Of a DNA stretch of 64,000 bases, positions 2 to 50,557 are shown piece by piece. The first letter of the stretch is position 1; every line of letters starts with the position of its first letter. Where the stretch lies: the IMG/VR virus record IMGVR_UViG_3300020180_000011, one strand, 5' to 3'. Under the pieces are notes generated by a model, which saw nothing but the letters and a program-made list of their open reading frames with translations, was not told the DNA's origin and searched no databases. A program made the translations under genes and the position numbers. The stretch comes from an uncultured virus (IMG/VR IMGVR_UViG_3300020180_000011). Taxonomy: Duplodnaviria; Heunggongvirae; Uroviricota; Caudoviricetes.

Positions 2-403
2 TTTGTAGATACTGAGGGTGTTATTGATACTACCGGATACGTCAGAGCTTTGTCTCGCAGGCAAACTGGCTTAGGTGCCCTAGCTGTAGGCGGGGTAGGT
101 GTAGGAGGAGGTCTTGCTTATAGAAAACTACAAAGCAACAAGAGCGAATTTGCTCAGCAACCAGAAAAGAAAAAAGGGCTAAGTAATGTGCAAAAAGTTG
201 GGCTGGGCTTAGGAGGTACTGCAGCTGCAGTTTCTACCGGAGCGTATATGCACAGACGAAACAGGCTTAAGTCTAGCGGCCCCGTAGATACCAATTGGGA
301 TAAGCTAGTTGATGAAAGTGCCGATTTGTTGAATAAAACAAAAAACATTCCTAAAACACGGGCAGCTAGAGTATTGAATAAAATAGATGACGTCTGGATG
401 TAA
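2..403 (+). CDS. Basic protein with two Gly-rich hydrophobic segments, AxF family (5' partial)
   Basis: Frame is open from the window edge (FVDTEGVIDTTGYVRALSRR...); GLGALAVGGVGVGGGLAY and GLGLGGTAAAVSTGAY separated by KSEFAQ. Confidence 0.75.
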   Translation, partial: FVDTEGVIDTTGYVRALSRRQTGLGALAVGGVGVGGGLAYRKLQSNKSEFAQQPEKKKGLSNVQKVGLGLGGTAAAVSTGAYMHRRNRLKSSGPVDTNWDKLVDESADLLNKTKNIPKTRAARVLNKIDDVWM

Positions 404-434
404 TCAAAACTAACGACAATTAAGCGTTTATCTG

Positions 435-492
435 TTGCTTAGACAATTTAATCTCGTTATATTAATTGCATAGATACAAATTCTATGCAATT
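435..492 (+). promoter_or_regulatory. Putative sigma70-like promoter with adjacent 11-bp perfect inverted repeat
   Basis: TTGCTT(435-440)-17 nt-TATATT(458-463), then AATTGCATAGA-N7-TCTATGCAATT (464-492), upstream of the head operon. Confidence 0.5.
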
Positions 493-515
493 TTATTAGT
501 GGGAAAGACTAATTT

Positions 516-896
516 ATGAAAAGTGGATATCGGCTTAAGGCGGCGACCGCTTATGCTAACTACTACTCTGATGTGCGCAACATGGCAGAGTTTGGTCGTA
601 TGCAAGGTGCTCGTGATGCCGTAGGTAACGCTGTCGGTGCTGTCACTCGTCCTTTGTTTGCTGGGGGTCGTCGTGCCTCTCGCGCCATTCAAAGCGGTGC
701 AAGACAAGTTGACGAAGCCATTATGGGCGGTGCTCAGGGTGCCATGAACAAAGCAGGTATGATGGGCCCTCAAACGGCTCGTCGTAAGCGTATGCTTGGT
801 TACGGGGGAGCTGCTGCTGCAGGCGCGGGTGTGGGTGCTGCAGGTTATGGTGGGTACAAACTAGCTACTCGTCCTGATGAAGAAGAGCAGTATTAA
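516..896 (+). CDS. Small basic Gly/Ala-rich putative head protein, AxF family
   Basis: YYSDVRNMAEFG near the N-terminus; C-terminal GYGGAAAAGAGVGAAGYGGY; directly upstream of scaffold. Confidence 0.75.
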   Translation: MKSGYRLKAATAYANYYSDVRNMAEFGRMQGARDAVGNAVGAVTRPLFAGGRRASRAIQSGARQVDEAIMGGAQGAMNKAGMMGPQTARRKRMLGYGGAAAAGAGVGAAGYGGYKLATRPDEEEQY

Positions 897-923
897 TCTG
901 ATTGATTAACTAGGACAAAAATT

Positions 924-1700
924 ATGGAAGAACTAAATCCACAAAATGCGTTCGGTGAACTGCTACTTGACGCTCTAGAAGCCCAATATGGCAGTTTGGA
1001 TGAAGGTATTGCTGCACTGATTCAATCAACTGGTCTTGAAGAAGATGAAGTGATTGCAATTGTGCAAGGTGAAGTGATTGTTGAAGATGAGACTTTGTTG
1101 TCTAGCATTTTGGAAGCATTTCCTGAAGCTGACGATGAGGACATGGAGCTTTTGATTTCTACGGCTACTGCTGTAGATGAAGAAGACCGCAATAGCTTGA
1201 TTCAAGCTATTGGCGATACAGAAGAAGATATGGAAGAAGGCGAAATGCCTGAAGAAATGCCAGAGGAAGCGTCTTACGGACGTAACCATCAAGGTGTAGC
1301 GCAGTTTTCTCAACAAGTTCAAAACTTGGAATATAAACTAGCTAACTTTGAGCGTACTGCTAATTTCTCACAAGCACTAAAAGAACTAGAAGTAGAAGCT
1401 TCTCGGTATGTGGATGCAGAATTGCTTCCTCCTTCCTACAAGGCTTTATTGATTGGTAACTTTACTGATGATGGTCAGCGAGTTGCTTGTTTTTCTACCG
1501 TCGCTAGCGAAAATGGTGTTGCTCCTGAAGTGATGCTGTTTGCTACTCGGTACGCGCTGGGTCTTCTAAAGGACGCTGCGGAGTTTGTGGAATTCCGCGA
1601 CTTTAGCGTATCTGATGAGGAATTTGCAATGGCTCAGTTTAGTGCAGGACATCAAGAGCAAGCTCAAGGTGACCTTTCTGCAATCTTTGGAGACTATTAA
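924..1700 (+). CDS. Putative capsid scaffolding protein
   Basis: Very acidic helical 258 aa, RBS AGGA, immediately before decoration and capsid genes; several AxF motifs. Confidence 0.6.
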   Translation: MEELNPQNAFGELLLDALEAQYGSLDEGIAALIQSTGLEEDEVIAIVQGEVIVEDETLLSSILEAFPEADDEDMELLISTATAVDEEDRNSLIQAIGDTEEDMEEGEMPEEMPEEASYGRNHQGVAQFSQQVQNLEYKLANFERTANFSQALKELEVEASRYVDAELLPPSYKALLIGNFTDDGQRVACFSTVASENGVAPEVMLFATRYALGLLKDAAEFVEFRDFSVSDEEFAMAQFSAGHQEQAQGDLSAIFGDY

Positions 1701-1708
1701 GGAGAAGT

Positions 1709-2605
1709 ATGACTTATTTACGAATCAAACGATTCAACGCAGGTAAGCCAATCCTTTTTGGTTTGAACGCAATGAAAGTGCCTTTCTCGGTAACGGCTAA
1801 GGCGGCTGACTTGCTCCCAGACTCAGAAGGACAAAAGGGTTTGCCAGAAGGAATGTTTATTGTAGGGACGGGAAGCGAAGTTCGTTTCTTGCCTCGTGCT
1901 CGTACGACTGCAGCTACTACTACTAGTGGTGGTACAGCTCGTAACGTGCCCCTGAAAGCACCATGCAACCAATTTAAGATTGGTGATGTGCTGTATGCTC
2001 AAGCTGGTTATGCGGAAGTAACATTTTCCGGTACGTTTGCAACGGGTAATACCTTTGTAGTTCGTGTTGGACAGACTTCTTATACTGGGACTGTCGGTGC
2101 TACGCAGACGGCTGCTGGCGCTATTGCTGCGTTTGTTACTGAACATGCTGCTGCTTTGCTAGTTGCAGGTACTACGGTATCTGCTAAAGGTAATGCATTG
2201 GTTGTGTTCTCTCAGCACTCTAACGCTATTGCTACCTTCAGCACTGCTCCTGCAGTTACGCTGTCTGTATCAACTACCGCTCCCGGTTTCTTAGGAGACA
2301 ATATTGCTCCTATTGGTACTATCTCAAGTATCTCTGCTCCTGCATCTAATGGTAATCGTACCGCTGTGTTGGATGCGGATGCTGCTTATGTAGTGCCTGT
2401 TGGTTGTGCAGTTGGTGTCTTGGTAGACAAGTATCTTGGTATTTATCCAGACCCACTGGATTTCACAGATACGCCTACTTTGCATGTGGCACCCATTCAA
2501 GGTGCAGATGGTGTTTACGAACAAAATCTGCCTTATATTGATGAATCCATCAAGAGGGCTTTGCCCTTGCTGAACATCAATGCTCATTTCTTTAAGTACG
2601 TGTAG
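1709..2605 (+). CDS. Putative head decoration protein
   Basis: Between scaffold and MCP, RBS AAGGAG, beta-rich Ala/Thr/Gly composition, C-terminal YEQNLP typical of decoration-like proteins. Confidence 0.55.
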   Translation: MTYLRIKRFNAGKPILFGLNAMKVPFSVTAKAADLLPDSEGQKGLPEGMFIVGTGSEVRFLPRARTTAATTTSGGTARNVPLKAPCNQFKIGDVLYAQAGYAEVTFSGTFATGNTFVVRVGQTSYTGTVGATQTAAGAIAAFVTEHAAALLVAGTTVSAKGNALVVFSQHSNAIATFSTAPAVTLSVSTTAPGFLGDNIAPIGTISSISAPASNGNRTAVLDADAAYVVPVGCAVGVLVDKYLGIYPDPLDFTDTPTLHVAPIQGADGVYEQNLPYIDESIKRALPLLNINAHFFKYV

Positions 2606-2613
2606 GAGATAAA

Positions 2614-3786
2614 ATGTCAAGTATCGAATCATGGCTGAAAGAACAACGTGTTGCACGTTCAGCCGACTGGCTAGCAGACCAAACGCTAACCAAACTCAAA
2701 GAACGTACTCGTCTGTTAGACCAGTACGTACCTATGAAAATGAAGGATGGCCGCGATTGGCTAGCCTACATTACGGAACAGATTGACCCAGTGGCATCAC
2801 TTGTTGCCCCTGGTGCAATTGTCCCATCGACCAAAAAAGGTCAATTTTCAAAAATCGACAGTAAGCTATTCAAGGCTGGTTTGCAGCATGAATGGACTGA
2901 AGATATCATGTGGCGGATGAAAGATGCTCAAGAATTTGCACGGGCAAAAGGCATCACCGTACAGAACATTCAAGTTGAGAGCGGCAAAGTACAAGTCGGT
3001 CAGGATAATTCCCTAGCCGAAACTATCTTTGGTACTCTAGCTAGCCTAGTGCGTGGACATATCAACCTGCTAGACTTTCTAGCTTGGCAAGTACTCCAGA
3101 CTGGCGCTATGGCATACAGTGACCCCCGCACTGGATTGGACATCAACCTAGATTGGAAGCCTGCTATCACGGCAAGCCATAATCACTTCCCTGCATTGTT
3201 CACTGACGTAACCCGTTATTGGACTGCACATGATACGGCTGATGGCCTGCAAGACTTGGTTGACATGCACTATGTCTACAAGTATGACAATGGTTGCTCT
3301 GCTGACTCTATCGCCATGAGCGAACAGTTGATGCATCAATTGCTTCGTCAAAAGAGCACCAAAGAAGCTGTAGTGTCTGCTATGACGGTTGGGTACAACA
3401 TCGTGGGTACTCCCAGCGTTGACCAACTTAATGAAGTGTTGACTCGACGGTTCTTGCCTCCTATTACTCTTGTTGACGACCATTTTGACATGGACAACAA
3501 CACGGGTATTGGTACTCCTACTCGTTTCCTTGACCCTACTCGCGTAGTGTTCTTGAAAAAAGGTATTGCGGAGCGTGTTCTAGGTGGAACGTTAGAAAAC
3601 AATGGCAAGGCAGGGATTTACCAGCGTACCTTTGAGAAATCCAAAGAGCCACCTCTTGATATCTCGACAACCGCTAGCCAAATGCTAATTGTTGCCCCTA
3701 GCATCTCTCGTTTGGGCATGAGCCGTAAAGTTACGACTCTTGTTATCCTAGAAGCTACTCAGAACCTAGCTGACTTTAGCCTGTAA
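2614..3786 (+). CDS. Major capsid protein (HK97 fold, lambda gpE-like)
   Basis: 390 aa, RBS AGGAG, motifs WQVLQTG, W...TADGLQDL and IAMS resemble the major capsid E family; followed by a terminator. Confidence 0.8.
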   Translation: MSSIESWLKEQRVARSADWLADQTLTKLKERTRLLDQYVPMKMKDGRDWLAYITEQIDPVASLVAPGAIVPSTKKGQFSKIDSKLFKAGLQHEWTEDIMWRMKDAQEFARAKGITVQNIQVESGKVQVGQDNSLAETIFGTLASLVRGHINLLDFLAWQVLQTGAMAYSDPRTGLDINLDWKPAITASHNHFPALFTDVTRYWTAHDTADGLQDLVDMHYVYKYDNGCSADSIAMSEQLMHQLLRQKSTKEAVVSAMTVGYNIVGTPSVDQLNEVLTRRFLPPITLVDDHFDMDNNTGIGTPTRFLDPTRVVFLKKGIAERVLGGTLENNGKAGIYQRTFEKSKEPPLDISTTASQMLIVAPSISRLGMSRKVTTLVILEATQNLADFSL

Positions 3787-3810
3787 AGGTTACTTGTTAC
3801 CCTAATAATT

Positions 3811-3842
3811 ATCCTCCACACTATACGTATGGAGGATTTTTT
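3811..3842 (+). terminator. Rho-independent terminator after MCP
   Basis: ATCCTCCA-N11-TGGAGGAT followed by a T run. Confidence 0.75.
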
Positions 3843-3849
3843 GTTGTAA

Positions 3850-3858
3850 TGATATAAT
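3850..3858 (+). promoter_or_regulatory. Extended -10 promoter candidate
   Basis: TGA-TATAAT just after the terminator, upstream of ORF 3892. Confidence 0.4.
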
Positions 3859-3891
3859 TATCTTATTGCTGACTTTATTTAAACTTACCCG

Positions 3892-4257
3892 ATGGATACT
3901 GCCGAAAATAAAGAACCTGGAAATATTAGAAAAGCGGTAGGTCTTGGGCTAGGACTAGGAGCGGTAGGAGTAGGTAGCTTAGCTTATATTAAAGGCAGAC
4001 AATCATCTAGAAAAGCAGCTGTAGATTTAATAATGGCTAGCTCTTCTTCTAAATCTGTGCCGTCTAAACTTGTTAAAGATTCAATGTTGTTAGACGGAGT
4101 TGGACAAATACAACGAGGAATAGGAGGAGCAACTGCGATACTAGGAGGCTACAGTGTGGCAAATAGCCTAAACAAAAAAGATAATAAAAACAATACTGAT
4201 TACAGTAGAAAAACTAATCGTTTGGTAAACTTTAGTCGCTATGTAGGATTGAATTAA
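3892..4257 (+). CDS. Basic protein with two Gly-rich hydrophobic segments, AxF family
   Basis: GLGLGLGAVGVGSLAY, GIGGATAILGGY, C-terminal TDYSRKTNRLVNFS. Confidence 0.8.
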   Translation: MDTAENKEPGNIRKAVGLGLGLGAVGVGSLAYIKGRQSSRKAAVDLIMASSSSKSVPSKLVKDSMLLDGVGQIQRGIGGATAILGGYSVANSLNKKDNKNNTDYSRKTNRLVNFSRYVGLN

Positions 4258-5487
4258 ATGAAGCTGTTACTGGCTAAACAAAAACCAGATATAGTGGATA
4301 GCATGTCTGCCCAGGAAAACACTAGTTTTCTTAACCCTAAAAATGATATTACAAAGTTAGGAAATCAAACTCAACTACTTACTATAGCAGGTGCAGGATT
4401 AGGGGGATTAGGCATATATAAGCAGGCAATGAAAAGTACTCAGGATGGCAAGATTAAGATGCCTCCTGACGCCATTAGACGAGCCACTAAACAAACTTTA
4501 GGAGTAACCGCATTGGGTGCTGCAGGCTTAGCGTTAAGTGCAGGATTTAGAGCCAAAGGTAGAGAGTTTTATAATATAGAGAATCCTGGCATAGACACCC
4601 GGCTATCCCCAATAGGCTACTATTCTACAAATTTGCGCTCGTTTGCTAACTTTAGAACCCAGGAACTTAAAGTAGATAATAAATTAGTAAATAAACTAGA
4701 GCTAACCCGCAAAGAAAAAGTGCTAGGAGTTGAGTCTCCCCAAGAGAGAGCAGCTCAAGGAGTAGCTATGGGAGGAGGGCTAGCTCTTGCGTATAAAATT
4801 AATGACAACAACTTAAAGCACAGTACTGCGGAAAGTTTATTGGAATTAAATCCTCGCTTGCAACAGAAGTTTGGAGACCAGTATGCTAATGTACTTAACT
4901 CTAAAAAGTATAAATTTGTTAGAGCACTAGAAAAGCATCCACTTACTGCAGCAATTCCGTTAGTAGCAGGAGTAGCTATAGCGGGAAATATTGGCAGGAA
5001 TGCCTTAAAAAATAGGGCACAAAAGAAGACTGATGAGTATCTAAATGCTTCTGGGGCTAATTTTAATCTAATTACGTCAGATGCTTATGCTTTAGGCAAT
5101 GTTACAGATGGGGAGAAACGATTACAAACTATGGGCTCAGTAGGATTAGGTGCAGGCGCAATTGGTGCGGTGCTATCCAGAAACGAGTATTACACTGATA
5201 AGATAGAAGCTGCGCCTGGTTATACCGCACAAAAACGTGCAGGAGCATCCGGTTTGCAGAACTTAGCAGAAAGAGATTTATCCATGCCTTTTAACTCCAA
5301 ATTGTTGCCCGGTAAAGTAGATAAGCTGTATAACCTAAAACGCAGGATAACTAAAAATGCTATGCCTTTAGCATCAGTAGCCGCTATTGGCACAGGCTTA
5401 GCTCTAAGTGGTAAAGCAGCTAACGATAGTTATCAAAGACACCTTCAAACTCAAGCACAGCTCTACGCTCAGGATAAACGGAAATAA
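4258..5487 (+). CDS. Three-module putative polyprotein, AxF family
   Basis: Three ~135-aa units, each with two Gly/Ala-rich hydrophobic segments, separated by ANF at residues 130-132 and 267-269. Confidence 0.8.
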   Translation: MKLLLAKQKPDIVDSMSAQENTSFLNPKNDITKLGNQTQLLTIAGAGLGGLGIYKQAMKSTQDGKIKMPPDAIRRATKQTLGVTALGAAGLALSAGFRAKGREFYNIENPGIDTRLSPIGYYSTNLRSFANFRTQELKVDNKLVNKLELTRKEKVLGVESPQERAAQGVAMGGGLALAYKINDNNLKHSTAESLLELNPRLQQKFGDQYANVLNSKKYKFVRALEKHPLTAAIPLVAGVAIAGNIGRNALKNRAQKKTDEYLNASGANFNLITSDAYALGNVTDGEKRLQTMGSVGLGAGAIGAVLSRNEYYTDKIEAAPGYTAQKRAGASGLQNLAERDLSMPFNSKLLPGKVDKLYNLKRRITKNAMPLASVAAIGTGLALSGKAANDSYQRHLQTQAQLYAQDKRK

Positions 5488-5982
5488 ATGAAGACATATA
5501 CTGTACTTATTGGTTACATATCTTTTAATGGTCAAACTATTCAACCCGGAGAATACACTGAGCTAGAGATTGATGTAGCAGAAGCCCGTAATAAAAGCCA
5601 GCTTGTAGAAACCGTAAATGTATTATCTAGTTTTTCTACCGAAGAAGTTGTCATTAAAGAAGTTAACCTGAAAACTGTGAGTGCTACTTCATTAGACACT
5701 GATACTATTAAAGATATTCATATTACACCTACTTTAGTTACACACAAAGTAAATAGTATTACTATCAATACAGCTACTCAAAAAGAATTAGAAGACTTAA
5801 AGTACGTAGCCGCTAAAACTGCTTCTCACGTAATTACTGAGCGAAACAAAAAGCAGTTTACTTCGTATGCTGATTTAAATCAGAGAGTACCTCTTAAATT
5901 CAAGAAGCAATGGGAAGATGTTGCAGTATTGGATTTTGAGTCTACAGTTAAAAAAGTACACTCTACGTTAAACTTTAGTTAA
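5488..5982 (+). CDS. Helix-hairpin-helix (ComEA-like) DNA-binding domain protein
   Basis: ITINTATQKELEDLKYVAAKTASHVITER...FTSYADL matches the ComEA/HHH_3 pattern. Confidence 0.7.
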   Translation: MKTYTVLIGYISFNGQTIQPGEYTELEIDVAEARNKSQLVETVNVLSSFSTEEVVIKEVNLKTVSATSLDTDTIKDIHITPTLVTHKVNSITINTATQKELEDLKYVAAKTASHVITERNKKQFTSYADLNQRVPLKFKKQWEDVAVLDFESTVKKVHSTLNFS

Positions 5983-6001
5983 TAAATACACATAATACAT
6001 C

Positions 6002-6424
6002 ATGAGTTTATTCCGTAGAGCTGGTTCTGGTATTGTTAATTTTGGTATTATTGATTCAGTTAAAGGTATCCCTCAATTTCTGGCAAATGATAAAGCTGAT
6101 ACAGAGTATTCTCTAGCTAAACTTAGGGCTATGCAAGCTAAAGGAGTTGAGCCTACTTTTGAAGATAGCTTTAGATTTTACCAAGAGGCTAAAAAGAAAA
6201 GAGAGAAGCTAGCTAAAAATAAGCAGGCTAGTTTTGGTGTTATTGAGGGCATCAAAGGGTTTGTAAAAACAAATCAAGATGATAACAAGGATATGAAAAC
6301 GGCTATAGCTAAGCTAAATCTAACCAAAGATAAATCTAAGGTAGATTACGTTACGTTAGCTAAAGAGTTTGAAAAAGCTAAAAAGAAAAGGATAGCAATG
6401 GAAGCCAAGAAAAGCAAGATGTAA
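6002..6424 (+). CDS. Lys-rich two-repeat protein, AxF family
   Basis: Internal duplication VNF-GIIDSVKG...AKL...AKKKR and ASF-GVIEGIKG...AKL...AKKKR. Confidence 0.8.
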   Translation: MSLFRRAGSGIVNFGIIDSVKGIPQFLANDKADTEYSLAKLRAMQAKGVEPTFEDSFRFYQEAKKKREKLAKNKQASFGVIEGIKGFVKTNQDDNKDMKTAIAKLNLTKDKSKVDYVTLAKEFEKAKKKRIAMEAKKSKM

Positions 6425-6427
6425 TCT

Positions 6428-6874
6428 ATGGAAAATCAATTATTTGACAAAGAATTACAAGACCAACCTTGGCGCAAATATTCTCCTGATGGCAAACGCA
6501 AACGTATGACAAACATTCCTTTTGGTGGAAAAATTAGTAAGCTGAAAGCTCAGGGCACCAAAGTTGTCCCAGTTGTTAGCAGTTTTTCATACATGGCAGA
6601 GTTTGCTTTAGTTCAGCCAACTAGGGTTAAAGGTAGTAAAAAACAAACTAATTATTTACCTTTTAATGATTACACTGCAGAGCAACGAGCTAATATGACT
6701 CCTGAAGAGCTACGTATTGCTGCAGAAAAACAGAAGAGACAGGACTCAGAGATTCGTCGTAAAGATGACAGCTCTAGACGCTCCGGCTATCGTACAATTC
6801 TTGATACAGTAGGAGAGGTTAGGGGCGGTAGCAGAGAGTTACGAGAATGGAACAGAGCACTTAAGTTTATTTAG
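6428..6874 (+). CDS. Basic protein, AxF family
   Basis: Arg/Lys-rich; central SSFSYMAEFA. Confidence 0.75.
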   Translation: MENQLFDKELQDQPWRKYSPDGKRKRMTNIPFGGKISKLKAQGTKVVPVVSSFSYMAEFALVQPTRVKGSKKQTNYLPFNDYTAEQRANMTPEELRIAAEKQKRQDSEIRRKDDSSRRSGYRTILDTVGEVRGGSRELREWNRALKFI

Positions 6875-6902
6875 ATACACCGGAAATACCTAAGAGTTAA
6901 TT

Positions 6903-7295
6903 ATGAATAACCAAGAAAACAGAGAACAGTCGGGCCCAGGATTTCTTAAGCCAGCAGCAGTAGCAGCAGGTTTAGCGGGTGTATACGTAGGAAACGAGGG
7001 ACGTAGACACGGCCAACGGCACACTGCCGGAGCTAAGTTAGCATCGGATTATTTAACTCAATACAAACCTAATCCTGCACTCGGAACCACCAAAGATATT
7101 AAAAATACGATAGCAGATTACACAACTAAAGGTAAAAAGTACAAGGGTCTGGGTCTGGCTGTAATGGCAGGCGGTGCAGCGTTAGCCGGATACGGAGTAC
7201 ACGGTATCTTGAACAGAAACAAACAACCGGACAATGCTAGTTATTCTGGATGTTCTTATAAGGTAGTTAATTTTAGCATTTTCAATGTTATCTAA
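6903..7295 (+). CDS. Basic protein with two Gly-rich hydrophobic segments, AxF family
   Basis: AAVAAGLAGVY, GLGLAVMAGGAALAGYG, C-terminal ASYSGCSYKVVNFS. Confidence 0.8.
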   Translation: MNNQENREQSGPGFLKPAAVAAGLAGVYVGNEGRRHGQRHTAGAKLASDYLTQYKPNPALGTTKDIKNTIADYTTKGKKYKGLGLAVMAGGAALAGYGVHGILNRNKQPDNASYSGCSYKVVNFSIFNVI

Positions 7296-7979: not shown

Positions 7980-8137
7980 TGAGCATTAAAGAAGAGCTAT
8001 TTAACGAGATACTTAAGGCTATTAAAAAAGATATCCCTACTGAAATTAGCCGTAACACTGGAGTTAAGACTTTTATTGATAAGTCTACAGAAAACTTAGG
8101 CTTTAAGAAAATAACTAAGAATGGAATAGTTCCCTAG
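7979..8137 (+). CDS. Small hypothetical protein (52 aa)
   Basis: ATG overlaps the upstream TGA and the stop overlaps the next start; MSIKEELFNEILKAIKK...; not in the ORF track. Confidence 0.55.
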   Translation: MSIKEELFNEILKAIKKDIPTEISRNTGVKTFIDKSTENLGFKKITKNGIVP

Positions 8138-8628
8138 TGTATATACCGAACCCTAATTTCCTTGTAGATAATCCTACTGTAGATGAAGACACTGAGGATA
8201 TTGCTACCTACTTAAAGAATCAGATTAACAGCACATTTTACACAGCGCTTAACTATGATGTAGTCAAGACTCACAGGTCTTACTACGACATTGCTATACC
8301 CATTATTGACTTTCCATGTCTCAGAGTTTACAAGACCGCTAACACTGCTTATGCAGATTACTCTGTGTCTAACATTAGTCAATACACTATCAACTACATT
8401 ATTGCTTTTACCACCAAACAAGTAGTAGCAGACATTAGTGCATTTATTGGTAGAGATATTCTTAGGTTACTAGTCAATAGCTCATTAGAGTCTAACAGCA
8501 TCTTTCAGCTAGACACATCTTCGTTACCTACCCTAGAGTACGATACTTTCATAGCCCCTAACAATACAATATACAAATACACTAATATTAGTTTTAGTGC
8601 ATACACGGCACTAACAAATCAGATATGA
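8137..8628 (+). CDS. Putative neck/tail terminator-like protein, paralog 1
   Basis: Position in the neck region; DIAIPIIDFPCLRVYKT. Confidence 0.55.
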   Translation: MYIPNPNFLVDNPTVDEDTEDIATYLKNQINSTFYTALNYDVVKTHRSYYDIAIPIIDFPCLRVYKTANTAYADYSVSNISQYTINYIIAFTTKQVVADISAFIGRDILRLLVNSSLESNSIFQLDTSSLPTLEYDTFIAPNNTIYKYTNISFSAYTALTNQI

Positions 8629-9128
8629 GCATATATTTAGAAAAACCTATATATCCTGCAGGATTTAGATTCACTGATAATGAGTCTGACTATATTGCTA
8701 AGTACTTGCAAGATAAAGTTAACCAAGTTTTTTCTACCGTATATTCATTTCCGCTTATTAAGACATACAGAACATTTAACGATATAGCTATACCCCTAAT
8801 AGACTTTCCTTGTCTGAAAGTCTACAGAACTAATGAAAGACTATATGCGGATTACAGCTCTGTGCTCATTACTTCATTTGCTATATCTTACATAGTTGCT
8901 TTCAGCACCAAACAACTTGTACCTGCCATTAGTGAAGCAGTATCTACAGAGCTTGTACGCTTGTTAATAAACAGTTCTTCAGATGATAGTTTTAAGTATC
9001 AAGTAGATTTTACCAACGGGTATCCTTCTACTCAATTTGATAGTTTTATAAATCCCTCTAACACAGTATTTAATTATGCTACTCTTAATGTAAGCATATA
9101 CTCAGACTACAAATCTTTAGCACCTTAA
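8625..9128 (+). CDS. Putative neck/tail terminator-like protein, paralog 2
   Basis: Full-length similarity to the preceding gene; DIAIPLIDFPCLKVYRT. Confidence 0.55.
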   Translation: MSIYLEKPIYPAGFRFTDNESDYIAKYLQDKVNQVFSTVYSFPLIKTYRTFNDIAIPLIDFPCLKVYRTNERLYADYSSVLITSFAISYIVAFSTKQLVPAISEAVSTELVRLLINSSSDDSFKYQVDFTNGYPSTQFDSFINPSNTVFNYATLNVSIYSDYKSLAP

Positions 9129-32084: not shown

Positions 32085-33569
32085 ATGCCAGAATTAATCT
32101 TGCCAAATAGCAGTGCAACTAGTAAGTCTTTACTGTTTGAAGATGTCCCGAATGTTTCAAACATTTATGCAGAAGGACAATACTCAGCAGAGTTAGCGGT
32201 ACTATCCACTACTACTGTATCAGATATTGCTTATCCTTCAGATGCTGAGCGACCTCCCATCAAAGCTCTCACTGATATGGTCGAAAGAGACCCTATGGTT
32301 GCTAAGTGCGTGTCTTTGTGTGCGCTAAGAGCAGTGCAAAACTTTGGTAACTATACCCACCCTAAAAAAGAGATTGAAAGCTTCATCAATAGCAACCTAA
32401 ATACCTTACAGAAGAGTCTTAAACGAACATTGTTTAAGATGGCATCTTGTGTAAAACTGTATGGTTTTGCTATTGCAGAATTTACTACTACCTCTAAACA
32501 GAAAGGCTTTCTAGGTCAATGGCGTTTACTTAACATCAATATTCTTCATCCTGAGCGCATTGTAAAGTTCTCAGGTAAGTTAGGACATATTGAATTTATT
32601 GAATATGACAATGGTAATGGTAAAACTGTAAAGATTCCATACAAGAAATGTATTCACATTATCAACAACAGTGGTACATCTTTTGATGCTGTTGAGATTT
32701 GGGGAGTAGGTGATGGTATTTCAGCATTAAACTACTACAACCTAAAGAAGGTAGTTTTAACTCAGATGGCGTTAGCAGCTAAGAACAACTCTACAGGAAT
32801 TGTTCATGCTAAAGTACCTAACGCAGGTAGAACTATCTTAGTTGATAGTAAGATGAAGCCTATCAAAGATAGCTCAGGTAAACCAGTTGAAGTAACTAAG
32901 CAGATTGCCCTTAACTACCAACTACAAGACCTGTACAAGAAAGACTACATCGTGACTGATGTGGATGTAATGCTTGAGCAGTTAAAGATTACTAATGACC
33001 CTCAGTTCTGGGAATATATTCTTAGCTACATTGATAAGAGTATTCAGATGAGTTTCGGTGTTCCTACAGGCATCTTTGATTCAGGTCAAGGTAATTTTTC
33101 TAACATTGGTCTATCTCAGAACTATAAGAGTGTATTTGATAGCAATATTTATGCGCTAGTAAACTCCATCAAAGAAGAGTTCATCAACAAGATTGTAAAA
33201 CGATTACTTTACTTTAACTTCCCGTCTGAGTGGTTTAGAAACAATCTTGGTGAGTTTGTATTTGATGCAGATGATGATGAGTCTACTAAGTCTCAGAGAT
33301 TAACTACTATTACTTCGTTAGTAGCATCAGGTATTCTAGATGCTAATGATATTGAGATTGCTCACCTGATTCGTAAGAATCTAGGATTGCCTGCTTTAGA
33401 CGAAGAAGAGAAAGCAGAGAAAGAAGCTGAGTCTATCCAAGCCAAAGTACAGAAAGAGGTAGAAAAACAGCTAGCCTTACTACAGACTCAAATGCAGCTA
33501 CAGCAATTACAAAATCCTCCACCACCTGAAGACCCCGAAGCTTCTGCTTATCCTCCTGAGGGCGCTTAG
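32085..33569 (+). CDS. Portal protein (Mu gp29/DUF935-like)
   Basis: 494 aa; MVERDPMV, YGFAIAE, YIDKSIQMSFGVP, LLYFNF, IRKNLGLP; TATAAT at 32055. Confidence 0.75.
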   Translation: MPELILPNSSATSKSLLFEDVPNVSNIYAEGQYSAELAVLSTTTVSDIAYPSDAERPPIKALTDMVERDPMVAKCVSLCALRAVQNFGNYTHPKKEIESFINSNLNTLQKSLKRTLFKMASCVKLYGFAIAEFTTTSKQKGFLGQWRLLNINILHPERIVKFSGKLGHIEFIEYDNGNGKTVKIPYKKCIHIINNSGTSFDAVEIWGVGDGISALNYYNLKKVVLTQMALAAKNNSTGIVHAKVPNAGRTILVDSKMKPIKDSSGKPVEVTKQIALNYQLQDLYKKDYIVTDVDVMLEQLKITNDPQFWEYILSYIDKSIQMSFGVPTGIFDSGQGNFSNIGLSQNYKSVFDSNIYALVNSIKEEFINKIVKRLLYFNFPSEWFRNNLGEFVFDADDDESTKSQRLTTITSLVASGILDANDIEIAHLIRKNLGLPALDEEEKAEKEAESIQAKVQKEVEKQLALLQTQMQLQQLQNPPPPEDPEASAYPPEGA

Positions 33570-33571
33570 AG

Positions 33572-34222
33572 ATGCCTAAGACTAGATTCTTACCTCCAAT
33601 GAGTCCTCAGGCTAAAAGAATTCTGATTGAGCTTAATAAGTCTAAAAAAGCTTTTGCTAAGAATTTACCTGCTTTAGGGAATGCTGAAAATTTACCTATT
33701 GCACACGATTACAGTCATGTATTACCTAGGATAGTTAATAAGTACACTACAGGTAAGAGAATGCAAGACTTGTCTGCTTCTACCTATTCTGAAAATAGTG
33801 TAGTTAGATTATTAGAAGACCAAGTATATAGTAGAGACAGCTTTACACGCAGACTAGGTAACTCCTCTTCCAAACCCCAAAAATATACTTATTCACCTAA
33901 AGGGCAAACAAGTATAGGTATGAACTCTAAGAATAAGCCTTTTGGTACTAAGAGACTAGAAGCTAATGCTCAGTACCAACGAACTATGTTGGATAACATT
34001 AACAGCCATAAAGACTTAAATACAGCTGTTAATGCTACTCAAGATATTATTCTTACAGCTAAAAGACGACAGTACCCAGATAGTCCTAAAGACTTAGGTT
34101 CTATTATGGATGAAGTAAGCATGTCTAGTAGCCGTAAGTATGTTAACTTTGGATGCGTTACGCTTGGGGCGTTACACAACCTAGTTTATGTGGAGAGCAG
34201 GACAAAGGGTACTCTGAAGTAG
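33572..34222 (+). CDS. Basic protein, AxF family
   Basis: Lys/Arg-rich; VSMSSSRKYVNFG near the C-terminus; follows portal. Confidence 0.7.
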   Translation: MPKTRFLPPMSPQAKRILIELNKSKKAFAKNLPALGNAENLPIAHDYSHVLPRIVNKYTTGKRMQDLSASTYSENSVVRLLEDQVYSRDSFTRRLGNSSSKPQKYTYSPKGQTSIGMNSKNKPFGTKRLEANAQYQRTMLDNINSHKDLNTAVNATQDIILTAKRRQYPDSPKDLGSIMDEVSMSSSRKYVNFGCVTLGALHNLVYVESRTKGTLK

Positions 34223-34369: not shown

Positions 34370-34744
34370 ATGTTAGACAAAATCAAGAAAATAGTTGTAG
34401 ACAAAGCAACAAATATCGCCGAAGCTGCAAAAACAGGTAGATTTTACAGGCGATGGGCTATCACCAAAGGTGGTGATAAGCTAGGTAAAAATAATGAGAA
34501 CATTAACCGAGCCCTGCTAGACCTACAGGATTTAGCTAAAAATGGGGAAAAGAAGTCTACTAGGAGACAGTTTTTATCAGACGCTTTAAGTAGGGCAGTA
34601 GAAAGAAACAAGCCGCCTCTCTTAAACAATATTAGCCATACTCCTATGGAGCAACTAACTGACGTACTAGATATAAAACCTAAGCTACCTAAGAAGCCCG
34701 TAGATACAGACTTTGCCTATATGTCTAAAATTTCAAGATTCTAA
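34370..34744 (+). CDS. Basic protein, AxF-like C-terminus
   Basis: Lys/Arg-rich; ends TDFAYMSKISRF. Confidence 0.65.
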   Translation: MLDKIKKIVVDKATNIAEAAKTGRFYRRWAITKGGDKLGKNNENINRALLDLQDLAKNGEKKSTRRQFLSDALSRAVERNKPPLLNNISHTPMEQLTDVLDIKPKLPKKPVDTDFAYMSKISRF

Positions 34745-41531: not shown

Positions 41532-42044
41532 TTAGTTAGGAGGGCACACTGTAGCTGTTGTCATTTGAACAATCAGAGCATCAACTGCTGCAGCTCCCCT
41601 CTGTGTAGAGAAATTATTATCGCACTGTAGACTAAAAGTTGAGGTGTTGCTCAGCGCTACCTTCCCCACAGAACCAGCTATAGATTCAGCTAAAGGAGTA
41701 GCAGTTACCATAATACCCGTATCAACGGGGCCTAAAGGCGAAGTGGCGTAGATAAAAGAAGTGCTGGCACCAAAGTTAGTGCCTACGTCTAAATTTTCTA
41801 ACTCCGTAGTAAAAGTCATATTTTCCAAATAGTATATTTGCTGGCCTTTAAGCAAACTTGACACATACACCTTTGCCTCAGATTGCCTAGCTCGTGCTGC
41901 CTGATTAATGAAAGAGGGCAATGCAATCGCGGACAAAATACCGATGATAATAATGACTACCAGCAATTCAATTAAGGTAAAGCCGTAGTTAGTGTTCTTG
42001 CTGAATTTAGCGGAACGTAGATACATTTGCAGGATAGCAGTCAT
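41532..42044 (-). CDS. pilA: Type IV pilin, cyanobacterial PilA-like
   Basis: G|FTLIELLVVIIIIGILSAIALPSF prepilin motif, ARQSEAK...QQIYYLEN, C-terminal Cys pair. Confidence 0.92.
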   Translation of the reverse strand: MTAILQMYLRSAKFSKNTNYGFTLIELLVVIIIIGILSAIALPSFINQAARARQSEAKVYVSSLLKGQQIYYLENMTFTTELENLDVGTNFGASTSFIYATSPLGPVDTGIMVTATPLAESIAGSVGKVALSNTSTFSLQCDNNFSTQRGAAAVDALIVQMTTATVCPPN

Positions 42045-50263: not shown

Positions 50264-50557
50264 ATGGCTAGGCTTTTTGCTAAAGGAAATAGAATCCAAG
50301 ATTTAATCAGAGTAGGAGAAGCGGCTTCTGTTCCTGTAGGTATTGGAGGTCTACTCATTGCGGATAAATCCACACGACAACAGACTAAAAACCTCGACAA
50401 ACAAGAAAAGCTAGCTGATAAATTGAATGCAAATCCTAGACTAAGAGATGCATTTGCTACTGCTGCTGACCCCAAACTAAAAGAAGCCTTAAAAACCCCT
50501 CGTGAGGAAATTCTACCTCCTACTCTACCTCCTAATTCCTTACGGCAACGACGCTAG
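50264..50557 (+). CDS. Basic protein with a Gly-rich hydrophobic segment, inverted within the replication block
   Basis: VPVGIGGLLIA followed by a basic tail; own TATAAT at 50223-50228. Confidence 0.6.
   Translation: MARLFAKGNRIQDLIRVGEAASVPVGIGGLLIADKSTRQQTKNLDKQEKLADKLNANPRLRDAFATAADPKLKEALKTPREEILPPTLPPNSLRQRR

Follow-up and report, generated by a model that had tools for sequence, protein, structure and literature searches.

A Short Phenylalanine Motif in Head Proteins of an Uncultured Cyanophage Points to a Candidate Internal-Protein Processing System

The Head Gene Cluster and Its Relatives

The stretch of DNA analyzed here, called the window below, comprises 64,000 nucleotides from an uncultured virus of the class Caudoviricetes (IMG/VR record IMGVR_UViG_3300020180_000011). 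Positions 2-7295 hold part of a head gene cluster that encodes a major capsid protein, a probable scaffold and a series of basic proteins (Table 1). Many of these proteins carry copies of a short motif ending in Phe, which we call a site or, in the basic proteins, a tag. An initial annotation, made from the letters alone, had proposed that the motif is the cleavage site of a head maturation protease that acts on scaffold, capsid and internal proteins of the phage head.

The major capsid gene (2614-3786) belongs to phrog_29 (E-value 3e-17), and its product is 54% identical to the capsid proteins of two Pseudanabaena phages, PA-SR01 and Pam2; searches of the phage collection with the capsid protein and the protease gave no other close relative in culture. 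By sequence similarity the window belongs to a cyanophage of the Pam2/PA-SR01 type. Pam2 itself is a siphovirus whose head measures about 100 nm (PMC9382816). The window begins within the head gene cluster, so that the sequence 5' of position 2, which is the protease region in the relatives, lies outside it. A metagenome scan for close relatives gave one close contig, which ends short of the protease gene.

Related genomes served for comparison. In Pam2 we scanned 186 of the 191 proteins with the motif fixed from the window beforehand; the five omitted proteins, none of which is a virion protein, do not lie fully within a fetched locus. Virion status was taken from Table S2 of PMC9382816, which lists proteins, not peptides. 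Five IMG/VR records of related phages form a further held-out set. In a distant clade, with capsid proteins 26-39% identical, 12 of 35 loci were examined; the diverged alignment was unsuited as a seed for the locus search and a ten-sequence subset was used instead.

Table 1. Head-region genes of the window and one further basic gene (cargo roles are candidates; pI, isoelectric point)
Position	Strand	Product	Features
2..403	+	Basic two-module candidate cargo protein	pI 10.0; 5' end lost at window edge; S-E-F 143-151 between two Gly-rich hydrophobic segments
516..896	+	Basic candidate cargo protein	pI 10.2; 26-residue leader ending A-E-F (585-593); one Gly/Ala-rich segment
924..1700	+	Probable scaffold	pI 4.1; acidic, helical; A-x-F at 1299, 1341, 1359, 1485, 1632; weaker sites 1578, 1587
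1709..2605	+	Conserved protein before capsid gene	Probable decoration protein, by position; not in tagged set
2614..3786	+	Major capsid protein	phrog_29; A-D-F 3769-3777, two residues from end, doubtful site
3892..4257	+	Basic candidate cargo protein	pI 10.2; two Gly-rich segments; C-terminal doublet tag, V-N-F 4225-4233
4258..5487	+	Candidate cargo polyprotein, 409 amino acids	A-N-F at 4645 and 5056, giving putative pieces of 132, 137 and 140 amino acids
5488..5982	+	Helix-hairpin-helix protein, conserved	Weak HHH_3, E-value 9e-5; 32-36% identity in relatives; ends L-N-F-S, non-canonical site
6002..6424	+	Basic protein, two repeated modules	pI 9.9; each module starts with a site: V-N-F 6035, A-S-F 6227
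6428..6874	+	Basic protein	Doublet S-S-F-S...A-E-F (6578-6604); weakly conserved, matches in loci L002-L004
6903..7295	+	Basic candidate cargo protein	pI 9.8; two Gly-rich segments; C-terminal doublet tag, V-N-F 7266-7274
33572..34222	+	Further basic protein behind portal gene	pI 10.0, net charge +17; V-N-F-G at residues 191-194

A Protein Motif Enriched in the Head Region

All 15 stretches quoted in the initial annotation translate as it claimed and lie at the positions it gave. The motif, given there as [AV]-x-F-[SGA], occurs 16 times in the 11 open reading frames (ORFs) of positions 2-7295 (2317 amino acids), and this enrichment is borne out by a control in which each protein was shuffled: the mean is 3.56 copies, and none of 1000 shuffles reaches 16. 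The other blocks of the window are not enriched (tail block, 20 copies vs 19.85 expected; early block, 7 vs 6.43), and the motif occurs elsewhere about once per 500-1000 residues. All 16 copies lie in the coding frame, against 0-3 in each of the other five frames, and their codons vary. It is therefore a protein signal, and we reject an origin as a DNA repeat. Because the motif was derived from the same proteins, the enrichment test within the window is circular, and tests on held-out genomes were made.

The proposed consensus holds in its core, A or V followed by F, and fails at its edges, since the site in KSEFA opens with Ser, and ANFE, ANFR and ANFN violate [SGA]. These sequences fit [AV(S)]-[NEQDS]-F better as the core, and the residue after it is loosely constrained. 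The site had also been described as usually a doublet, with a Y/F/M-S element ahead of it. This is a tendency rather than the usual rule: [YF][SG] stands 3-12 residues upstream of 8 of 17 sites in the window, 22 of 59 in held-out basic ORFs and 47 of 121 in protease tails, for backgrounds of 0.15, 0.10 and 0.20, respectively. A Tyr version of the signal did not survive the count (x-x-Y-[SGA] 21 times vs 20.6 expected), and Tyr is thus rejected as a generally enriched residue before a putative cut (P1) in the window. One A-x-Y in the scaffold is conserved (Ala in 23 and Tyr in 27 of 30 homologues).

The probable scaffold, so labeled from its position and composition, is the counterpart of Pam2 gp18; its structural model has no clear fold match. 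Among 30 of 86 scaffold homologues, kept at less than 75% identity, there are 4.5 sites each versus 0.95 after shuffling, and 135 of 136 sites fall in the C-terminal 58% of the protein. Four sites can be aligned, and in these Ala (25-30 of 30) and Phe (26-30 of 30) are kept while most adjoining positions vary. A..F is the top enriched residue pair in the C-terminal halves of the scaffolds (z 17), and it also ranks first in protease tails. Retention of the motif while the flanks diverge, which had been named as a check, is seen in the scaffold homologues, in the distant proteases and in the loci of the distant clade.

The string LADFSL, quoted from the end of the capsid protein, is present there, and as a site it is doubtful. 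Only two residues follow the Phe, the next residue varies (S, N, E, T, L or Q), and no such site is apparent at the capsid-protein ends of the distant clade; for these reasons we do not count the capsid protein as an established substrate. In PA-SR01 a 47-kDa gel band was assigned to the capsid protein by size alone (PMC10286775).

Basic Tagged Proteins

The initial annotation spoke of about ten small basic proteins; we find seven (pI 9.8-10.2), one of them 409 amino acids long. Their modules are built of one or two Gly/Ala-rich hydrophobic segments each, and most tags in the window are C-terminal or internal, not N-terminal. Five of the seven have no blastp match in the related loci L001-L020, and the candidate cargo proteins gave no useful match in Pfam, PHROG or Atlas, the product of 4258-5487 matching no Pfam or PHROG family. 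The three putative pieces of this product each have a pI of 9.8-9.9 and one or two Gly-rich hydrophobic segments. For the product of 516-896 the sole blastp match in L001-L020 covers residues 1-43, i.e., the leader, and the protein resembles, as judged by eye, the basic modules fused to distant proteases. In the close relative L055 the modules of 2-403 are split over two ORFs, of which the second has an N-terminal S-E-F leader itself. Pam2 gp22, which occupies the same gene position as 6428-6874, carries A-S-F and A-E-F and is found in virions.

Close strains lose whole cargo genes, as seen in single contigs of other sequencing runs (depth 3-10). One contig omits 6903-7295 exactly (joining 6871 to 7293), and one leaves out 4258-5487 together with the preceding gene (3871 to 5485). 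That preceding gene, 3892-4257, is either left out (3874 to 4254) or shortened by a junction of 3926 to 4206 that retains the tag. Within 6002-6424 one contig joins 6047 to 6240, site to site.

A further basic gene lies outside the region covered by the initial annotation. As in Pam2, where it is gp50, the portal gene (32085-33569, + strand) sits with the tail genes, at a distance of about 28 kb from the capsid gene; two basic ORFs, 33572-34222 and 34370-34744, come after it. From its sequence the product of 33572-34222 is likely an additional member of the tagged set, a membership made weaker by its single site. Another lone basic ORF, 50264-50557 (+), is on the late strand within the early block and is thus placed like the dispersed cargo genes of Pam2; it has a hydrophobic Gly-containing segment, a TATAAT upstream and no canonical tag. 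A hairpin (464-492) ahead of 516-896 and a hairpin with a T-run (3813-3843) after the capsid gene may be terminators between cargo cassettes. A promoter scan stayed at chance level.

The Motif in Held-Out Genomes

The motif predicts presence in the Pam2 particle. The Pam2 head cluster has 15 motif sites versus 2.2 expected, virion proteins outside this cluster have 16 versus 4.4, and non-virion proteins outside it have 20 versus 16.1. A tag within 20 residues of an end is found in 12 of 27 virion proteins and in 9 of 159 others (p-value 1e-6); among forward-strand genes outside gp10-22, the figures are 9 of 20 virion proteins and 3 of 38 other proteins (p-value 0.002). The tagged virion proteins are basic hypothetical proteins dispersed over the genome, many of which begin M-Q-H-F-[AV]-[ND]-F. 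Presence in particles thus holds for tagged proteins of Pam2, according to the published table. Neither the Pam2 scaffold gp18 nor the protease gp14 was detected in virions in that table.

In the five IMG/VR records a terminal tag occurs in 29 of 55 late-strand basic ORFs versus 31 of 299 early ORFs, and in the distant clade in 32 of 92 basic ORFs versus 25 of 165 others.

Several observations bear on how the tag is distributed. About 70 bases upstream of Pam2 gp189 (locus L020, record 140801) there is DNA for an extra M-Q-H-F-A-D-Y tag, hinting from sequence that the tag spreads as a small cassette. In the head cluster of PA-SR01, an ORF annotated as a DEAD/DEAH helicase (L002:16258-18054, - strand) has a basic N-terminal extension and then M-E-H-F-A-N-F; to judge from this arrangement, an enzyme may serve as tagged cargo. 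Two contigs filed as Scytonema and Allocoleopsis (L094, 156 kb; L095, 130 kb) also contain this head cluster and its tagged basic genes, which suggests that they hold prophages or co-assembled phages of filamentous cyanobacteria.

The Protease of the Relatives

A head maturation protease encoded outside the window had been predicted, and in the relatives it is found a few kb upstream of the capsid gene and bears the motif itself. It is 340-370 amino acids long, is labeled Mu-like prophage I protein in PA-SR01 and matches phrog_976, head maturation protease (E-value 1.3e-7). His113 and Ser177 are invariant in all 67 aligned sequences. The predicted structure matches the varicella-zoster virus (VZV) protease (VIA-align Z 10.9, root-mean-square deviation 2.5, 112 aligned residues), T4 gp21 (Z 9.3, deviation 3.2, 117 aligned) and the human cytomegalovirus (HCMV) protease (Z 8.4). 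Foldseek with this model returned nothing at E <= 0.001, though its top ranks were herpesvirus proteases; sequence searches found no relative with a solved structure; and a Peptidase_S77 search, with no match anywhere, was uninformative, since its controls were likewise silent. The protease had been called chymotrypsin-like. The model of the catalytic domain matches the assemblins and T4 gp21 instead, which makes a chymotrypsin (clan PA) fold unlikely for this enzyme; a second protease may exist beside it. Given the assemblin fold, the term can apply to the P1 preference only.

A catalytic domain could be located in 183 of 218 protease homologues. Outside this domain, F follows A-[NED] 5.7 times as often as expected, and A-x-F is an enriched motif in both protease clades sampled. 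A loosely defined site lies behind the catalytic domain in 82 of the 183 (no control was computed for this count), and in 49 a basic tail is fused behind A-x-F. Of 66 long tails, 27 switch from acidic to basic residues no more than 5 residues away from a site, versus 7% for random positions. Among 40 distant proteases (mean column identity 26%; most of them chosen because their tails are long), neither this Ala and Phe nor the catalytic residues vary. In some genomes a module similar to the protease tails is a separate gene directly behind the protease.

A Model of Cleavage after Phe and Its Alternatives

We favor, as the probable though far from certain reading of these sequences, a T4-like internal-protein system in which the phage's own prohead protease, of the assemblin fold (clan SH), would cut after the Phe of [AV]-[NEQDS]-F. 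The protease would recognize an aliphatic or hydroxyl residue, Ala, any residue and Phe. By analogy with T4, scaffold, protease and tagged basic proteins would co-assemble in the prohead core. The positions of the sites suggest that the protease would then free its own catalytic domain at flanking A-x-F sites and break up the scaffold's C-terminal half into short fragments, while cargo leaders and tails would be trimmed and polyproteins such as 4258-5487 split into basic modules of about 135 amino acids. Pieces of scaffold and protease would exit and the basic modules stay with the DNA, which is consistent with the Pam2 mass spectrometry. By analogy with the internal proteins of T4, some modules would probably be ejected and take effect in the host. 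The tag and its upstream aromatic-Ser element probably serve loading too.

The surroundings of the Phe are in line with a cut. In 29 leaders of the distant clade the charge shifts across it from -0.4 to +4.5, and in 40 of 61 N-terminal tags the next residue is A, G or S, with Ala the commonest (24 of 61). A second site of the Glu type ([ASG]-x-E, as in T4 and SPN3US) follows only 2 of 25 N-terminal tags. The cleavage logo of SPN3US has Val at P4, A-X-E, and Ser at P1' (PMC10052503); in the sequences at hand the tag logo has this shape with Phe replacing Glu.

Several results weigh against this model. The cut after Phe is a proposal from sequence, and the Pam2 virion table lists no peptides. 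Three tagged C-termini, one of them that of the Pam2 virion protein gp46, stop at the Phe, leaving nothing to remove. In proteases and scaffolds many different residues follow the Phe (E, Q, K, N, F), and the scaffold sites fall in predicted helices, which counts somewhat against easy cleavage. In the ORFs from protease to capsid of the five held-out records, [AV]-x-F-[SGA] occurs 20 times versus 10.4 expected, which is not significant in three of the five, and the remainder of these genomes is also above expectation (198 vs 165). The tagged Pam2 proteins gp10, gp16 and gp37 were undetected in virions. The window's own protease gene lies outside the window, so that the enzyme is known from relatives only, and the protease and scaffold homologues counted above are related sequences, not independent events. 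A predicted complex of the G001 protease domain with its cognate 32-residue tagged N-terminus scored 0.06 (mark 0.32) and weighs neither way.

The three C-termini and the helical scaffold sites would fit better if the motif were an uncut targeting hook that binds the scaffold core or shell, with proteolysis elsewhere or limited. T4 offers a precedent in its capsid-targeting sequence MKTYQEFIAE (PMC8442874), in which residues 4 and 7 matter for targeting and residues 8 and 10 for processing, with the cut at 10 (PMC9026906). Positions 4 and 7 are likewise aromatic in the M-Q-H-F-A-N-F tags of the Pam2 clade, 18 of 61 N-terminal tags have their Phe at position 7, and gp53 and gp54 of SPN3US start M-A-N-F yet are cut at Glu (PMC5694885). 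In the distant clade, however, this register is lost (Phe at positions 4-29, an aromatic P4 in 1 of 29 leaders), and what is kept there is A-x-F with its charge boundary. A hook would also leave a protease with invariant catalytic residues for which no second candidate site was found, and sites at domain junctions, with 4-5 per scaffold, seem to fit cutting better. We therefore regard the hook as a serious competitor that is nevertheless rather unlikely to be the whole explanation; the two functions can both hold. It is much harder to believe that the cut after Phe is the work of a different enzyme, for instance a host protease of the Prp type or of some other kind. [quoted passage not shown] The relatives of the window phage, though, encode their own protease, which bears the sites, and Prp (PF04327) was found in none of the five related phage records (the control gave matches in 3 of 14 genomes; no search of cyanobacterial hosts was made). 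Prp is mainly an enzyme of the Firmicutes type. Least credible of all is that chance, composition, a DNA repeat or an ordinary structural pattern produced the motif with no shared function. It is short, with a notable background elsewhere, and some sites (the capsid protein, A-C-F, V-E-F) may be structural; but in-frame enrichment with varied codons, the association with Pam2 virion presence, and the marking of basic ORFs in five other genomes and in the distant clade largely refute this.

The most likely function of the modules would be to bind and neutralize DNA through their basic stretches. Their ejection into the host is plausible by analogy, and insertion into membranes via Gly-rich helices is the boldest reading. 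It is tempting to combine these ideas: across a wide cyanophage clade, an assemblin specific for Phe might, together with a portable tag some 7 residues long, load fast-changing basic glycine-zipper modules, whether single, in polyproteins or fused to the protease, which are then ejected into host membranes as a DNA conduit or as takeover or counter-defence effectors. We consider this scenario as a whole improbable; were it true, the tag would offer a convenient means of delivering proteins into cyanobacteria.

Other Genes and Features of the Window

The conserved protein encoded before the capsid gene (1709-2605) is 43-51% identical to its homologues in the relatives, and its Pam2 counterpart gp19 is in virions. 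Within the capsid gene, near 3284 and 3627, runs X2 and X4 have loose ends that share GC-rich sequence, which suggest an insertion (insertion sequence, intron or repeat element) in related strains. The adjacent genes 8137-8628 and 8625-9128 (+) look like tandem paralogues that share the stretch IDFPCL[RK]VY, and the relatives seem to have a single copy. A type IV pilin gene is carried at 41532-42044 (-; Pilin_GH E-value 6e-13, N_methyl, phrog_3433), possibly for superinfection exclusion or altered host pili.

Comparison with Known Systems

The closest parallel is T4, with its protease gp21, scaffold gp22 and internal proteins IPI-III. The likeness extends to the protease fold (by the match given above) and to the sites, here sequence motifs, which are numerous in the scaffold and also present at the ends of the protease itself. 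It also includes basic, variable cargo genes that are dispensable among strains and share only a short tag (PMC9026906, PMC3012670); the internal proteins of T-even phages are a diverse set in which only the targeting sequence is conserved (PMC3012670). Unlike the proposed system, with Phe as its fixed residue, T4 cuts after Glu at L/I-X-E. The tags here are N-terminal, C-terminal and internal, and cargo also comes as polyproteins or protease fusions. Pam2, moreover, is a siphovirus, and no long propeptide of the capsid protein is apparent here. The T4 type of N-terminal tag, with aromatics at 4 and 7, is common in the Pam2 clade and lost in the distant one.

The proteases gp175 of phiKZ and gp245 of SPN3US resemble the proposed system in a three-residue motif with Ala at P3, an aliphatic P4 and a small P1' (PMC10052503, PMC5694885), as well as in repeated propeptide sites and C-terminal self-cleavage, shown for them and present here as motifs. 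They differ in cutting after Glu and in removing mostly long propeptides, whereas the leaders here have 7-30 residues and the cargo is Gly-rich and basic. In the sources available, all prohead proteases with mapped multi-substrate motifs (T4, phiKZ, 201phi2-1, SPN3US) cut after Glu. Our literature search, beyond whose reach most subscription papers lay, found no paper on a Phe-cutting prohead protease or on the tag.

The assemblins of herpesviruses (VZV, HCMV and herpes simplex virus) are the best structural matches, and the order of protease domain, site and then a helical acidic domain in the phage protein resembles a protease-scaffold precursor. They cut after Ala, unlike the Phe proposed here, and to our knowledge they do not load variable cargo in this manner. 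With 80alpha and Prp the proposed system would share the cut after Phe at a motif common to head proteins (PMC5744158); it differs in that Prp is a host enzyme making one N-terminal cut per protein, with no cargo set, and in that Prp is absent from the five relatives searched.

As the Glu of T4 is replaced by Phe, we regard the candidate system as a variant of the gp21/scaffold/internal-protein system of T4, not as a plain member. The tag gives a rule for spotting virion proteins among the hypothetical proteins of these cyanophages and flags about a dozen in Pam2, dispersed over the genome. A Phe-cutting member, if confirmed, would show how far the specificity of the assemblin fold can shift, and it would extend the internal-protein strategy of T4 to siphoviruses, with the addition of polyprotein and protease-fused cargo.

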